DNA from: a virus
Strand: one strand, 5' to 3'
Virus genome (UHGV): UHGV-0200626
Length of the DNA stretch: 40,988 bases
Under the pieces are notes generated by a model. The model did no database searches and had not been told where the DNA came from. It saw nothing but the letters and a program-made list of their open reading frames with translations. A program made the translations under genes and the position numbers. Position 1 is the stretch's first letter, and every line of letters starts with the position of its first letter. Of the stretch, positions 33,675-37,651 are shown one piece after another.

Positions 33675-33700
33675 AACCCAGCTTCGGCTGGGTTTTTTTA
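33675..33700 (+). terminator. Intrinsic terminator after ant
   Basis: CCCAGC-ttcg-GCTGGG followed by TTTTTTTA. Confidence 0.65.
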
Positions 33701-33767
33701 TGCCCAAAATTCACCGTAGCCATGCTGCGGCGATTCCTTGTATCTGGAGCAAATTAAATGACAGACA

Positions 33768-34262
33768 TTATCTAAAACAAGCAAACTCGCCATGATATTT
33801 TTCCCTGAATGCAATAGACATCAATTCGGCCAGCTCAATATCATCGGTATACCCAAGGCAAATAGACTTACCTTTTAGTTTGAACATAACTTTATATGTG
33901 TTTTTCCCTTTAAGAAGATGAACTCCTTTTATACCTGTATTGGATGATGAAACGCTGTTGGTTTTATTCTGACCTCTGGTTACTTCTCTTAGGTTTGAAA
34001 TTCTATTGTCATTTTTAACCCCGTTAATATGGTCAATTAACCCTTTAGGCCAGCATCCTTTCATATAAAACCAAGCAAGTCGGTGGCAAAGATACGATTT
34101 TCCATTAATCCGTATTGATAAGTAGTCGGCCTGTGAGTTCGTCTTAAATCCAGCAACCTTTCCGATACTGGAGCTACCAGAAGCTATCTTCCAAGTGAAG
34201 ACGCCTGTTTCTGGGTTGTAGTTGAGTGAAGAGGTTAATTCTTTATGAGTAATCATATTCAT
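33768..34262 (-). CDS. HNH endonuclease with AP2 domain (second copy)
   Basis: 164 aa; HNH core GLIDHINGVKNDNRISNLREVTRGQN and AP2-like TGIKGVHLLKGKNTYKVMFKLKGKSICLGY; paralogous at protein level to the ORF at 11427..11933. Confidence 0.7.
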   Translation of the reverse strand: MNMITHKELTSSLNYNPETGVFTWKIASGSSSIGKVAGFKTNSQADYLSIRINGKSYLCHRLAWFYMKGCWPKGLIDHINGVKNDNRISNLREVTRGQNKTNSVSSSNTGIKGVHLLKGKNTYKVMFKLKGKSICLGYTDDIELAELMSIAFREKYHGEFACFR

Positions 34263-34282
34263 TCCTTAAATAGAGATTTACT

Positions 34283-36118
34283 ATGTCAAATATTGTGCCA
34301 AATGTTATAATTTCAATGCCAAGTCAACTATTTACGTTAGCCAGAAAATTCCAGGCCGCAAGCAATGGCAAGATATTCATTGGTAAGATAGATTCCGATC
34401 CTACGCTCCCACAGAATCAAGTGCAGGTTTATGTGGAAAACGAAGACGGTTCTCACGTTCCTGTTTCGCAACCAATAATCATTAACGCTGCTGGTTACCC
34501 TGTATATAACGGACAGATTGCCAAATTCGTAACTGAGCAAGGCCATTCTATGGCTGTTTATGATGCGTATGGTGCACAGCAGTTCAAATTCCCAAATGTG
34601 CTGAAGTATGATCCTGACAGACTTGCTCAAAAACTGGAGAGTGAATTTGGAACTAAATATATAGGAGCTCCGTCAGGTGGCGGGACTCTTTATGATATGC
34701 TGTGGTTTGTAACTCCAGCACAATTTGGAGCCCCAGAAGATGGGAGCGATGCATCATCCTCATTACAGGAAATGCTTGATTACGCTACACTAAACGGTAA
34801 GGCAGTATTATTCGATAAAGCGATTACATATAACATAGAAAAGCCGTTAATATATAAGCAAAAAGGATTTCGTAACAGCCGTATTCTTTGCTATGGTGGA
34901 CGAACAGTAATAAATCTAAACTCTTCAACAGCGACTTCCGGATTGCCTAATGATGAAAGCGGAATTGTTATGGATGTTAATGCTGCAATTGTTGTGTCGT
35001 CAACAAACCCGGACACCGCGGTAGTAAACCAACCACAGGCTGTATATATAGAAGGGTTGCAATTCACTTCAACTGCTGGCGGCTCCTACGGAATTTACCT
35101 TGGGAAAACACAGAACACAAATATTAACGATTGTAAGTTTACAGGATTCACTGAAGCTGATATCTGCGATAACGGTTCATGGGTATTCCGAGTTCATGGC
35201 TGCCAAAATTTTAGCGCAGCCAACTACGGTATATGGAAAAAAGCAGGTACATCTGCATGGATTACAGAGTGTTATTTCCAGAACTCTAACTATGCAGTGC
35301 GAATGAAGAGTGGGTACTCTGTTATATCCAAGTGCGCTAATGATTTTACTAAAAATGCCGCATATTGGCTTGAGTCATCGGATTATAACAGTGTATATAC
35401 TATTGATGAGTGTGGTTTTGAGAACTCAGGTTCAGATGCTGTTGTTAAAGTTTCTGGGCGTATTGCACTCACATGGTCTAACTGTATGGCCGGTAACATT
35501 GAATCTCAACAGTCACCTGTTCCTACAAATTTACTCTGGGTTCAGGGCGACAGCAACGGTTCTCAGTTTACACTGAGCAATATTAGATTCCTCAATACTG
35601 GTCGTCGCATATGGGATTTAGGGACTAATAGCCGCTTCACCATTAACCGTGTCAACCATGCCTCAGGTGGCTTAGCGGATGTATGGGGGGATGGCGCGCT
35701 TGTCAATGAAAACACCTATAACACCACCAAGTATATGTCCGCCGCCTACCCCAATGGTTTTCAGATTGGACCAACAGGACTTAGCGACTGGTTCTCATCA
35801 GGCGGAAACACTGGCTCATTACCAAACGACCAAAGATTTTTGAGGTACTCCAAGACGATTACCAGAGCATCTGGTCAGAGTTTTGGAACAACAACAATAA
35901 CGTTACCATTTCAGTTGAGTGTCGATGGTGAGGGGTATCAGGTTATTGTCACTCCGAGAGAGTATCCAAATAACGTCCCTACGTATCAATGGCATTGCGC
36001 AAGTTATAATCATACATCCACTGATGTTCAGATTATAGCTGGTCGTGGTGATGGCAACACAGCATGGTCAACAGTTATTGTTGACATATTAATAATTGGA
36101 AAAGCGATAAACTTTTAA
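34283..36118 (+). CDS. Tailspike: P22 gp9-like N-terminal head-binding domain with a different receptor-binding domain
   Basis: Residues 1 to about 110 match P22 gp9 (GKIFIGKIDSDP...VYVENEDGSHV...VLKYDPD); the remainder is unrelated and rich in N/G/S/T as in beta-helix depolymerases. Confidence 0.8.
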   Translation: MSNIVPNVIISMPSQLFTLARKFQAASNGKIFIGKIDSDPTLPQNQVQVYVENEDGSHVPVSQPIIINAAGYPVYNGQIAKFVTEQGHSMAVYDAYGAQQFKFPNVLKYDPDRLAQKLESEFGTKYIGAPSGGGTLYDMLWFVTPAQFGAPEDGSDASSSLQEMLDYATLNGKAVLFDKAITYNIEKPLIYKQKGFRNSRILCYGGRTVINLNSSTATSGLPNDESGIVMDVNAAIVVSSTNPDTAVVNQPQAVYIEGLQFTSTAGGSYGIYLGKTQNTNINDCKFTGFTEADICDNGSWVFRVHGCQNFSAANYGIWKKAGTSAWITECYFQNSNYAVRMKSGYSVISKCANDFTKNAAYWLESSDYNSVYTIDECGFENSGSDAVVKVSGRIALTWSNCMAGNIESQQSPVPTNLLWVQGDSNGSQFTLSNIRFLNTGRRIWDLGTNSRFTINRVNHASGGLADVWGDGALVNENTYNTTKYMSAAYPNGFQIGPTGLSDWFSSGGNTGSLPNDQRFLRYSKTITRASGQSFGTTTITLPFQLSVDGEGYQVIVTPREYPNNVPTYQWHCASYNHTSTDVQIIAGRGDGNTAWSTVIVDILIIGKAINF

Positions 36119-36257
36119 TTGCTCAAAGGCATGAGGTCTGTCATCCAATCATCAATCTAACGATGGCTTGTTGTGGCTGATGAGATAAAAATGAGACACA
36201 CAACGATTTTGCATTGACTCGCAAAGCTTTGTGCTCTTCGATAGTGGTTAAGGTGGA

Positions 36258-37451
36258 TTACTCCACCTTTTCATCAAGCCAGTCCGCCCACCACTGCATC
36301 ATTTCTCTGCGCTTATCGAGATACTGAGCATGGTTGTAAATCCCGCGCACAGATCCGCCGTTGGCATGTGCCAGTTGCACTTCAATAGCATCAGCAGGCC
36401 ATTCGTGCTCGTTCATAATCGTGCTGAATTCATGCCTGAATCCGTGACCGCTTTCCAGACCCTCATAGCCAATTTGTTTGATCACAAGCAATACCGCGTT
36501 CTCGCAGATTGGCTTCTTCTTATCGTTGCGACCGGCAAAAACAAACTCTGATACTGGTTTAGTGATTGAGCTTAGCGTAGTGAGAAGTTCAACCACCTGG
36601 TCTGACATAGGAACCACATGAATTTTGCGTCCCTTCATCACACTGGCGTCGATGGTGATAATCCTGTTTTCAAAATCGACGTTCTTCCATAGCATGGAAC
36701 GAAGCTCTTTTGTTCTGAGGGCTGTGTAGCGTAAAACTTTGGTCGCAATGAGCGATACGATGCTTCCTGAAAATGTTGCCAGTGCTTTGTTAAATGCCGG
36801 GATCTGGTCTGCAGGAAGAAACGGGAAGTTTTTCTTGCGGTATCCCTTCATGGCGTCAGCAAGGTCAGGTGCCGGGTTATATTTAGCCCTACCAGTGACA
36901 ATAGCGTAACGGAAAACCTCGCCGCATCTTCTGCGGGCTTTGTTGGCTCGCTCCATTGCACCGCGATCTTCAAATCTGCGGATTACTTCCAGCAGTTGCA
37001 TCGGCTCAATATCCTGAATTTCAAGGCCGCCGATGATAGGTAAAATGTCGTCATCAAACATTTTTGCAAGTTCAGTCGCATACCCTACTGACCAGACTTG
37101 CTTCTTGTGCTCGTACCATTCCTTGTAAATCGCACTAAAGGAATTGTTGTTAGACGAAGCCTTTTTCGCCTTTACCGGATCGATGCCAACCGAGATGTCT
37201 TTCCTCGCAGTCCATGCCTTATCCCTTGCCTCCTGCAAAGTCATTAGCGGATATTTTCCTACGGTCAGGATTTTCTCCTTACCGTCAATCTTGTAGCGAA
37301 GCTGCCATACCTTTTTCCCGGATACAGGGACATAAAGGTACAGGCCATTACCATCGAGAAGGCGGTATGGTTTTTCTTTCGGCTTTGCTGCTTCAATCTG
37401 CTTAACAGTGAGCATGAGTAAAAATCCGGTGGGTAAAATTATTTTATCCAC
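36258..37451 (-). CDS. intS: Tyrosine integrase (CPS-53 IntS-like)
   Basis: 397 aa; C-terminal catalytic residues within HGFRHEF and RGIYNHAQY; immediately downstream of the tRNA 3' end. Confidence 0.85.
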   Translation of the reverse strand: MDKIILPTGFLLMLTVKQIEAAKPKEKPYRLLDGNGLYLYVPVSGKKVWQLRYKIDGKEKILTVGKYPLMTLQEARDKAWTARKDISVGIDPVKAKKASSNNNSFSAIYKEWYEHKKQVWSVGYATELAKMFDDDILPIIGGLEIQDIEPMQLLEVIRRFEDRGAMERANKARRRCGEVFRYAIVTGRAKYNPAPDLADAMKGYRKKNFPFLPADQIPAFNKALATFSGSIVSLIATKVLRYTALRTKELRSMLWKNVDFENRIITIDASVMKGRKIHVVPMSDQVVELLTTLSSITKPVSEFVFAGRNDKKKPICENAVLLVIKQIGYEGLESGHGFRHEFSTIMNEHEWPADAIEVQLAHANGGSVRGIYNHAQYLDKRREMMQWWADWLDEKVE

Positions 37452-37576: not shown

Positions 37577-37651
37577 TGGTGTCCCCTGCAGGAATCGAAC
37601 CTGCAATTAGCCCTTAGGAGGGGCTCGTTATATCCATTTAACTAAGAGGAC
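37577..37651 (-). tRNA. argW: tRNA-Arg (anticodon CCU), argW-like
   Basis: Reverse complement reads GTCCTCTTAGTTAAATGGATATAACGAGCCCCTCCTAAGGGCTAATTGCAGGTTCGATTCCTGCAGGGGACACCA (75 nt) with acceptor stem, CCT anticodon in a CTCCTAA loop, GGTTCGATTCC T-arm and CCA end. Confidence 0.95.

Follow-up and report, generated by a model that had tools for sequence, protein, structure and literature searches.

A tailspike of an argW-integrated Escherichia coli P22/Sf6-like prophage probably joins a conserved head-binding anchor to an acquired, glycan-active beta-helix module

Analysis of the window, a 40,988-nt stretch of viral DNA (UHGV-0200626), revealed a tailspike gene that closes the late genes of a P22/Sf6-like (Lederbergvirus) prophage. 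It is a real gene, and a chance open reading frame is ruled out, because the identical 611-aa protein is encoded in the same gene context by ten independent public contigs and relatives were found at 79–99% identity. Within the gene, the minus strand holds open reading frames of 97, 58, and 50 aa, which were taken as mechanical. The features of the locus are as follows:

33700..33775, + strand: conserved boundary sequence found upstream of tailspike genes; a relic of the ancestral start (33758, ATGACAGACATTATCTAA) forms its end
33768..34262, – strand: HNH endonuclease gene (164 aa; PF13392 HNH_3, E = 4.3e-15), inserted at the start (codon 5) of the ancestral tailspike gene
34283..36118, + strand: tailspike gene (611 aa; ATG start, stop included), with Pfam and PHROG tailspike matches
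34283..34423, + strand: recoded first 47 tailspike codons, which travel with the upstream HNH cassette (nucleotide comparison with B4103-1 and 1916D6)
34283..34621, + strand: head-binding (virion anchor) domain, residues 1–113 (PF09008; Sf6 gp14 and P22 gp9 alignments)
34622..34688, + strand: linker or neck past the conserved KYDPD motif, residues 114–135 (model helices 111–118 and 123–126, low pLDDT)
34689..36118, + strand: transferable receptor-binding module, residues 136–611
34802..35782, + strand: right-handed parallel beta-helix, residues ~174–500, the predicted glycan-binding and catalytic body
35168–35170, + strand: D296, likewise invariant across the module family
35342..35422, + strand: candidate catalytic, family-invariant carboxylates D354 (35342–35344) and E380 (35420–35422)
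35831..36106, + strand: C-terminal beta-sandwich, residues ~517–608 (model strands 517–528, 534–540, 553–558, 570–575, 581–588, and 597–608)
36258..37451, – strand: IntS-type integrase gene, convergent with the tailspike gene (Pfam Phage_integrase, Arm-DNA-bind_3, and Phage_int_M; intS in B4103-1)
37577..37651, – strand: tRNA-Arg(CCT) gene argW (ARAGORN), attachment site, where the prophage ends on the right; the empty argW site of strain 2021CK-01361 matches from 37577 onward

The backbone of the prophage is 92–95% identical to phages E212, EC.P3, Kapi1, and CUS-3, and the terminase, portal, scaffold, coat, needle, and ejection genes are retained. Upstream of the tailspike gene lie Arc-family ORFs and a P22 antirepressor (PF10547/PF10548), that is, P22-type ant and arc. 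No repeat of the tRNA 3′ end, which would mark attL, was found within the window; the window therefore starts inside the prophage.

The N-terminal 113 residues of the tailspike cover the Pfam Head_binding profile PF09008 completely (positions 1–113 of 113; E = 1.8e-63, 212 bits with a cut-off of 24). In sequence searches of the PDB, Sf6 gp14 (7sg7) aligned to residues 1–121 (E = 3.9e-58), and full-length P22 gp9 (8tvr_A, 667 aa; 2xc1_A, 666 aa) aligned by phmmer to residues 1–126 with its own residues 1–124 (E about 3e-41). Judged by these alignments, Sf6 gp14, not P22 gp9, is the closer relative of the domain; the N-terminal domains of Lederbergvirus tailspikes found by Foldseek were 75–80% identical over the aligned part. 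A preliminary description of this DNA had limited the likeness to P22 gp9 to the first 110 or so residues and had called the remainder shorter than the P22 endorhamnosidase domain; both statements were borne out, with an alignment that stops at residue 126 and protein lengths of 611 and 667 aa. At the nucleotide level, megablast matches to 23 phages and 963 E. coli records stopped at about nt 336–366 of the gene. In residues 114–135, likeness to other Lederbergvirus tailspikes has ended and likeness to carriers outside this genus has yet to start. Such a pattern is familiar in P22-like phages, in which the head-binding residues 1–115 are conserved while the C-terminal parts are “not recognizably similar” (PMC2629481; the pattern also in PMC10408124). 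The structure model, a monomer built from an 18-sequence alignment, gave pLDDT values below 50 for residues 1–139 because the alignment was shallow; the N-terminal domain was identified by sequence instead. The “colanic acid degradation” label of phrog_8280 was rejected as an annotation of the protein, as the match came from the head-binding domain and an extension of the alignment.

Comparison with related loci showed how the 5′ end of the gene was altered. A boundary of about 71 nt, 96–100% identical, lies upstream of or overlaps the tailspike start in about 770 E. coli genomes and 21 phages, and is annotated in CUS-3 as “bsq1; boundary sequence.” The canonical tailspike 5′ sequence reads ATGACAGATATCACCGCAAATGTT... 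and is found in B4103-1, from which the HNH gene is absent; the recoded 5′ end of the window has 57% nucleotide identity to it, rising to 95% from nt 142 of the gene. Strain 1916D6, by contrast, has the same HNH gene upstream of its tailspike gene and a 5′ end 100% identical to that of the window, and the combination of HNH gene and recoded 5′ end was found in 7 of the 5,426 genomes. The HNH cassette might be an active homing element, with a double-strand break and its repair, placed right where the tailspike gene starts, co-converting the flanks and so promoting exchange of receptor-binding modules among P22-like prophages; the recoded codons 1–47 would then presumably be resistant to cleavage. 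We regard this idea as tentative and unlikely, but if it were true, the cassette would be a mechanistic driver of host-range switching rather than a passive passenger.

The disruption of the ancestral gene start by the HNH cassette would speak for a tailspike gene that is a decaying, non-functional relic of a defective prophage, as would the location of the only complete-genome copy (B4103-1) in a prophage remnant. However, all 611 codons are intact, the lost 5′ end has been replaced in frame by that of the cassette, the ten contigs encode the identical protein, the prophage of the window keeps the genes for packaging, head, and ejection listed above, and the receptor-binding module is carried at 93–95% identity by lytic phage contigs. 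Decay of the gene is thus very improbable.

Past the neck, the protein has a different history. Nucleotides 34689..36118 are 88.2% identical over 1,430 nt to a Kagunavirus-like siphovirus contig (L010), and the match ends exactly at the stop codon. The tailspike of that contig has a different anchor, PF18668. At the protein level, the module is 93–95% identical to PF18668-anchored tailspikes on a siphovirus contig, and identities of 87–95% were seen to proteins whose N-termini are PF18668 or of another type. Further copies are carried by a myovirus contig with multiple tailspikes and, at 61% identity, by a T7/SP6-like podovirus contig. The module was acquired horizontally and is exchanged among phage types, with recent transfer between a temperate phage of the P22-like kind and lytic contigs of siphovirus, myovirus, and T7-like podovirus type. 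While the anchor (the first ~340 nt) was found in 963 E. coli records, the rest of the gene was found in one; the swap of the receptor-binding domain behind a conserved head-binding domain, proposed in the preliminary description, was thereby seen directly. The module is rare: among 5,426 complete E. coli genomes a single one carries it (strain B4103-1, O27:H7), and among 1.84 billion representative proteins its family comprises 12 clusters at 50% identity. This small family has no member with a solved structure or an experimentally known receptor. Conceptually the exchange is nothing new, as anchor/receptor-binding modularity and exchange across genera are already well documented.

Structure prediction and fold search of the C-terminal part, the check proposed at the outset, gave a confident prediction for residues ~140–611, in which a right-handed parallel beta-helix is followed by a C-terminal beta-sandwich, the architecture of tailspike depolymerases. 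The model clearly places the module within the pectate-lyase-like beta-helix superfamily. In Pfam, the beta-helix matches of the module stayed under the gathering threshold (Beta_helix PF13229, 20.4 bits vs. 25.9; NosD PF05048, 21.0 vs. 23.6), and its relatives bear precomputed matches to PF13229, PF05048, and PF12708 (Pect-lyase_RHGA_epim). W595 and G606 are conserved in the beta-sandwich across the family alignment, and by analogy this domain may have a part in trimer assembly. Searching the PDB by sequence with the module returned no close solved homologue; mostly the generic N-terminal cap motif was matched (Phi92 gp150, beta-1,3-glucanases, and mannuronan epimerases), apart from a longer but weak match to 24qi (module positions 9–261; E = 1.8e-5).

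The preliminary description had further held the remaining 500 residues to be unrelated to P22 gp9. This stood for the sequence and not for the fold class, which is a right-handed parallel beta-helix in both. The shared fold and similar size, together with the P22 and Sf6 spikes listed by Foldseek with E values down to 6e-13, would also fit a C-terminal part that had diverged far from a common ancestor with the P22 endorhamnosidase instead of replacing it. We consider this extremely improbable: P22 gp9 showed no alignment past residue ~125, no P22, Sf6, or HK620 tailspike was among the PDB matches of the C-terminal profile at E values up to 10, and the tailspike protein matched no P22-tail family in the Pfam search.

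Three acidic residues, D296, D354, and E380, are invariant in the 18-sequence alignment, which extends down to 25% identity. In the secondary structure of the model, D354 and E380 end the short second strands (352–354 and 378–380) of consecutive rungs, and the stacked cysteines C351 and C377 stand three residues before them; this geometry was deduced from the DSSP register of the model and not from coordinates. The spikes of HK620, Sf6, and P22 likewise have acidic residues stacked on consecutive rungs. The model would thus be consistent with a catalytic role of D354 and E380, and possibly of D296.

The fold search itself does not tell a hydrolase, lyase, epimerase, or non-enzymatic binder apart, as high scores were shared by tailspikes and non-hydrolytic beta-helix proteins. 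The adhesin PfbA, the AlgE4 epimerase, and NosD scored equally high, and no catalytic motif of a defined GH or PL family was recognized in the module by Pfam or PDB profile search. The module might therefore bind its glycan without cleavage, or modify it, for example by deacetylation, instead of depolymerizing it; the acyltransferase of the O27 cluster, described below, would be in line with O-acetyl groups on the receptor. This alternative nevertheless appears quite unlikely to us given the three acidic residues that stay unchanged in family members as distant as 25% identity, two of which stack on neighbouring rungs. In addition, known tailspike deacetylases such as G7C gp63.1 have an SGNH fold and not a beta-helix, which counts against deacetylation.

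As to the substrate, a depolymerase acting on the O-antigen is the reading we prefer, and the O27 O-antigen is our best guess as the receptor, on slender grounds, because the lone module carrier among the 5,426 complete genomes is O27:H7. The O27 wzy gene was found in 11 of these genomes, B4103-1 among them, a coincidence with a chance probability of about 0.2% that is based on one carrier (n = 1). The B4103-1 copy sits in a remnant in which the replication genes are truncated and no head genes were found within the stretch examined. Five genomes match the chromosomal flank of the window at 100% identity; one of the five is 2021CK-01361, an O27-wzy strain with an unoccupied argW site. The annotated O27 cluster consists of glycosyltransferases, wzx, wzy, and an acyltransferase, with no dedicated sugar-nucleotide pathway genes; in view of the acyltransferase the receptor may bear O-acetyl groups. 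Serogroup O27 occurs among enterotoxigenic E. coli. In Lederbergvirus prophages, tailspikes usually match the O-antigen of the host (PMC10408124). The E. coli host, the lack of sequence similarity to the endorhamnosidase, and the O27 serogroup of the sole complete-genome carrier strongly imply that the surface polysaccharide specificity differs from that of P22 for the Salmonella O-antigen, in agreement with the preliminary description.

A glycan other than the O-antigen, such as a group 1 or 4 capsule, colanic acid, or the enterobacterial common antigen, would make the module not serogroup-specific. The best whole-protein PHROG bears the label “tail spike protein with colanic acid degradation activity,” and the module begins with an N-terminal cap like that of the Phi92 gp150 colanidase. 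Capsule-specific P22-like spikes also exist, with an endosialidase in CUS-3 on the same prophage backbone, and several receptor-binding protein subtypes span many serogroups (Pas et al., 2023). However, the head-binding domain accounts for the PHROG match, and the search with the module alone gave nothing convincing (best E = 0.00097). The similarity to gp150 is limited to the first 60 residues, a generic FGAxGDGxxDD cap. Moreover, a spike for colanic acid or the common antigen would be expected in many serogroups, while the module was found in one genome, an O27. Such a target therefore seems unlikely.

Altogether, we consider it probable that the ORF is the tailspike of an apparently complete, argW-integrated E. 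coli P22/Sf6-like prophage and combines an anchor with an acquired glycan-active beta-helix module. The spike would be the sole receptor-binding protein of the prophage, built of two modules. Residues 1–113 would dock the trimeric spike onto the tail hub. In the horizontally gained residues ~136–611, the predicted beta-helix ahead of the beta-sandwich most likely binds a polysaccharide of the host surface and cleaves it, by analogy with all characterized spikes of the same architecture, and D354 and E380, possibly with D296, would be the probable catalytic residues. Cleavage of the glycan would allow the virion to reach the outer membrane; the substrate is most probably an O-antigen, with O27 as the best current guess for the serogroup. 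Tailspike modules decide which serogroup can be infected and serve as serotyping reagents and depolymerases; if the link to O27 holds, an O27-specific spike would be added to the catalogue.

Compared with known systems, the tailspike shares the PF09008 head-binding domain with P22 gp9, Sf6 gp14, and HK620 gp9, being highly similar to residues 1–121 of Sf6 gp14. The gene position after the immI (arc/ant) region is the same, and so is the plan of anchor, neck, parallel beta-helix, and C-terminal domain. The receptor-binding part, in contrast, has no detectable sequence similarity to the P22, Sf6, and HK620 spikes and is shorter than that of P22, which suggests that the specificity must differ from theirs. 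The solved depolymerases (gp86 of the Acinetobacter phage Belisarius, 24qi; AS12 gp42, 6eu4; Det7, 6f7k; CBA120 TSP2/TSP3) are 10–16% identical to the module, and neither their substrates (Acinetobacter capsules, Salmonella and E. coli O-antigens) nor their catalytic residues can be carried over to it. With the Phi92 gp150 colanidase (6e0v), the first ~60 module residues align as an FGAxGDGxxDD-type cap (E = 1.4e-8); the profile search found no similarity past the cap, the Foldseek TM was 0.23, and the query has lost the canonical motif and reads FGAPEDGSDAS.

The nearest named relatives are ECML-4 RBP3 (YP_009101512) and PGN829.1 RBP2 (AXY82585), to which the spikes of IME10 and UTEC10 can be added. 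All are homologous over 96–99% of the module at about 32% identity (tblastn: ECML-4, 32.3% over 98%; PGN829.1, 31.9% over 96%), PGN829.1 RBP2 was the top structural match among viral proteins, and these relatives have the same invariant residues as the module. ECML-4 RBP3 and PGN829.1 RBP2 belong to the receptor-binding protein subtype “X2,” “serogroup not assigned” (Pas et al., 2023). Under the subtype definition of at least 30% amino acid identity over at least 60% of the receptor-binding domain (Pas et al., 2023), the module would fall within X2 by its sequence, as a borderline case and with no bearing on the receptor. As the identity is only about 32%, the sugar specificity is very probably different; should the O27 link hold, a receptor would be assigned within the X2 family for the first time. 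The anchors of the X2, IME10, and UTEC10 spikes are those of Kuttervirus, Gamaleyavirus, Kagunavirus, and another Lederbergvirus.

The window is a segment of an E. coli chromosome with a P22/Sf6-like (Lederbergvirus) prophage that shares 92-95% identity in its late region with phages E212, EC.P3, Kapi1 and CUS-3. The prophage looks complete, because ORFs for terminase, portal, scaffold, coat, needle and ejection proteins were all found. Comparison with the empty argW site of strain 2021CK-01361 placed its end at about 37577, and attL was not found in the window. Arc-family genes and a P22-type antirepressor gene lie just upstream of the tailspike, which is surrounded by the following features:

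33700..33770: boundary sequence of about 71 nt, immediately 5' of tailspike genes and reaching into their start, annotated as 'bsq1; boundary sequence' in CUS-3
33768..34262, minus strand: HNH endonuclease gene (PF13392), directly after the relic of an ancestral tailspike start
34283..36118, plus strand: tailspike ORF with an ATG start, 611 codons
36258..37451, minus strand: IntS-type integrase gene, convergent with the tailspike
37577..37651, minus strand: tRNA-Arg(CCT) gene argW, followed by yfdC, mlaA and yfdF

The preliminary description had placed the tailspike ORF at exactly these coordinates. Pfam Head_binding (PF09008) spans its whole profile at residues 1-113 (E 1.8e-63). When all PDB chains were searched by sequence, residues 1-121 aligned with Sf6 gp14 (7sg7, E 3.9e-58) and residues 1-126 with full-length P22 gp9 (8tvr_A, 667 aa; 2xc1_A; E ~3e-41); past residues 1-126 no PDB chain aligned. 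The resemblance of this anchor to P22 gp9, noted earlier, was thereby recovered, but Sf6 gp14 is the closer relative. When a profile of the C-terminal part together with its relatives was used as the query, the spikes of P22, Sf6 and HK620 were not recovered at E up to 10. The match to P22 gp9 is N-terminal only, and the earlier interpretation, a conserved head-binding anchor with a swapped receptor-binding module, is correct.

The structure of the protein was predicted with AlphaFold2 from an 18-sequence alignment. Residues ~140-611 were modelled at high confidence (pLDDT mostly 80-96) as a regular right-handed beta-helix with three strands per rung (residues ~174-500), followed by a beta-sandwich (residues ~517-608). 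The N-terminal 139 residues were modelled poorly because the alignment was shallow, and that domain was therefore identified by sequence. In the fold search the module matched phage tailspike depolymerases (Belisarius gp86, AS12 gp42, Det7, CBA120 TSP2/TSP3) and other pectate-lyase-like beta-helix proteins (AlgE4, RbmB, GH28, GH110), and P22 gp9 was absent from the best 60 matches. Foldseek matches to P22 and Sf6, with TM scores of just 0.2-0.37, stem from the common anchor. The C-terminal part had been called unrelated to P22 gp9, which holds for sequence but not for fold class; an origin by divergence from the P22 endorhamnosidase is all but excluded. Among predicted viral structures, PGN829.1 RBP2 was by far the best match (E 1.3e-29). 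Most members of the family and many pectate-lyase-like proteins keep the beta-helix cap motif FGAxGDGxxDD. In this protein (34724..34756, residues 148-158) and its nearest relatives the motif reads FGAPEDGSDAS, a drift that probably explains why PF12708 was not detected here.

By analogy with the family architecture, a trimeric spike is expected, with a beta-helix that would bind and cleave a surface polysaccharide. Five acidic residues, D153, D224, D296, D354 and E380, are invariant across 18 family members down to 25% identity, D153 as part of the cap motif. In the model, D354 and E380 are the last residues of strands 352-354 and 378-380, the short second strands of two consecutive rungs, and each lies three residues past a stacked cysteine of the ladder C284, C307, C330, C351 and C377. 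We propose D354 and E380 as the candidate catalytic pair, perhaps with D296 as a third residue. A module that binds without cleaving, or that deacetylates, seems quite unlikely.

In 5,426 complete E. coli genomes, megablast with the tailspike gene matched 963 records, almost all of them ending at nt ~336-366; the match ran on to the stop codon in a single record, E. coli O27:H7 B4103-1 (98.8% identity). None of 50,697 phage records contained the C-terminal DNA. Close relatives of the module (79-99% protein identity) carry differing N-termini: PF09008, PF18668 (a TSP1/gp66-type anchor) or a short unrelated one. A 48-kb Kagunavirus-like siphovirus contig encodes a PF18668-anchored spike with 88.2% nucleotide identity to the window from 34689 exactly through the stop codon (36118), the module is found at ~93% amino acid identity on a myovirus contig of 104 kb that encodes several tailspikes, and on a T7/SP6-like podovirus contig it is a protein of its own (492 aa, 61% identity). 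From the stretches shared among these carriers, the transferable unit is residues ~136-611, and residues 114-135 are a neck or linker after the conserved KYDPD motif. A dead tailspike gene is very improbable, because the ORF is intact, the same protein occurs on 10 contigs and a near-identical one is found in lytic phage contigs.

When 1.84 billion cluster representatives were scanned exhaustively with HMMER, only 12 related clusters emerged, 11 of them at E < 1e-30. Phage GenBank has no relatives other than the spikes of IME10, UTEC10, vB_Ec-G1, ECML-4, PGN829.1, CR01, M01 and U1G, at ~32% identity; ECML-4 RBP3 and PGN829.1 RBP2 belong to RBP subtype 'X2', to which no serogroup was assigned (Pas et al.). 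The best PHROG for the whole protein is labelled 'colanic acid degradation'. We rejected this label for the module, because the module alone had no convincing PHROG match and its likeness to the colanidase Phi92 gp150 is limited to its first ~60 residues, the beta-helix cap.

The boundary sequence is 96-100% identical in ~770 E. coli genomes and in P22-like phages of E. coli and Salmonella, and is likely a recombination anchor for tailspike exchange. It leads into a relic of the ancestral tailspike start, ATGACAGACATTATCTAA at 33758; the HNH gene was inserted after codon ~4 of that ORF, and the present start follows (cassette region 33758..34423). Over its first 141 nt the present gene shares only 57% identity with the canonical 5' end of B4103-1, although the encoded peptide is similar; from nt 142 on the identity is 95%. 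Strain 1916D6 matches those 141 nt at 100% and likewise has this HNH gene, but a different receptor-binding module. With the cassette comes a recoded version of codons 1-47, 100% identical to other carriers; the cassette occurs in 7 of the 5,426 genomes, where the downstream spikes differ from that of the window beyond the anchor. The cassette resembles a free-standing homing endonuclease accompanied by a recoded copy of its own target, presumably immune to cleavage. That it promotes module exchange is a speculation we consider unlikely. Between the antirepressor gene, just 5', and the boundary sequence lies a strong terminator-like hairpin (33675..33694, AACCCAGC-TTCG-GCTGGGTT, then a T run). 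For the spike to be expressed, late transcription must pass through this hairpin and the antisense HNH gene.

Lederbergvirus prophage spikes usually match the host O-antigen (PMC10408124), and the sole complete-genome carrier of the module, B4103-1, is O27:H7, with 'O27 family' wzy and wzx in its galF-gnd cluster; O27 is therefore a candidate receptor. The O27 wzy occurs in 11 of 5,426 genomes, so that a random carrier would be O27 by chance in ~0.2% of cases. The receptor is probably some O-antigen; a capsule, colanic acid or ECA as the target is unlikely. O27 itself is a tentative assignment, slightly short of an even chance, with effectively one carrier and that in a remnant prophage. In B4103-1 (NZ_CP024245.1 2262699-2276393) truncated replication and helicase genes run straight into the immI region, and the stretch examined has neither head genes nor the HNH cassette. 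Five genomes match the chromosomal flank of the window at 100% identity, among them the O27-wzy strain 2021CK-01361, which, with its empty argW and identical flank, would be a natural host for trying the phage. At its unoccupied argW (NZ_CP107720.1 1521723-1539059) the sucrose-utilisation csc genes adjoin the tRNA. The tailspike-integrase gap (36119..36257) is without an O-antigen modification gene (gtrABC or acetyltransferase), so seroconversion of the host by this prophage from that position may be lacking. Related prophages have such a gene there, for instance the acyltransferase after the spike in 1916D6.

Mildly new are a rare module family without a solved structure or assigned receptor, possibly specific for O27, and the recent movement of this module between three types of lytic phage and a temperate podovirus. 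A conserved anchor with a swapped C-terminal part is already in the literature: P22-like phages conserve residues 1-115, with C-terminal parts that are 'not recognizably similar' (PMC2629481). The tailspike swap is a real but ordinary case of this well-documented phenomenon.
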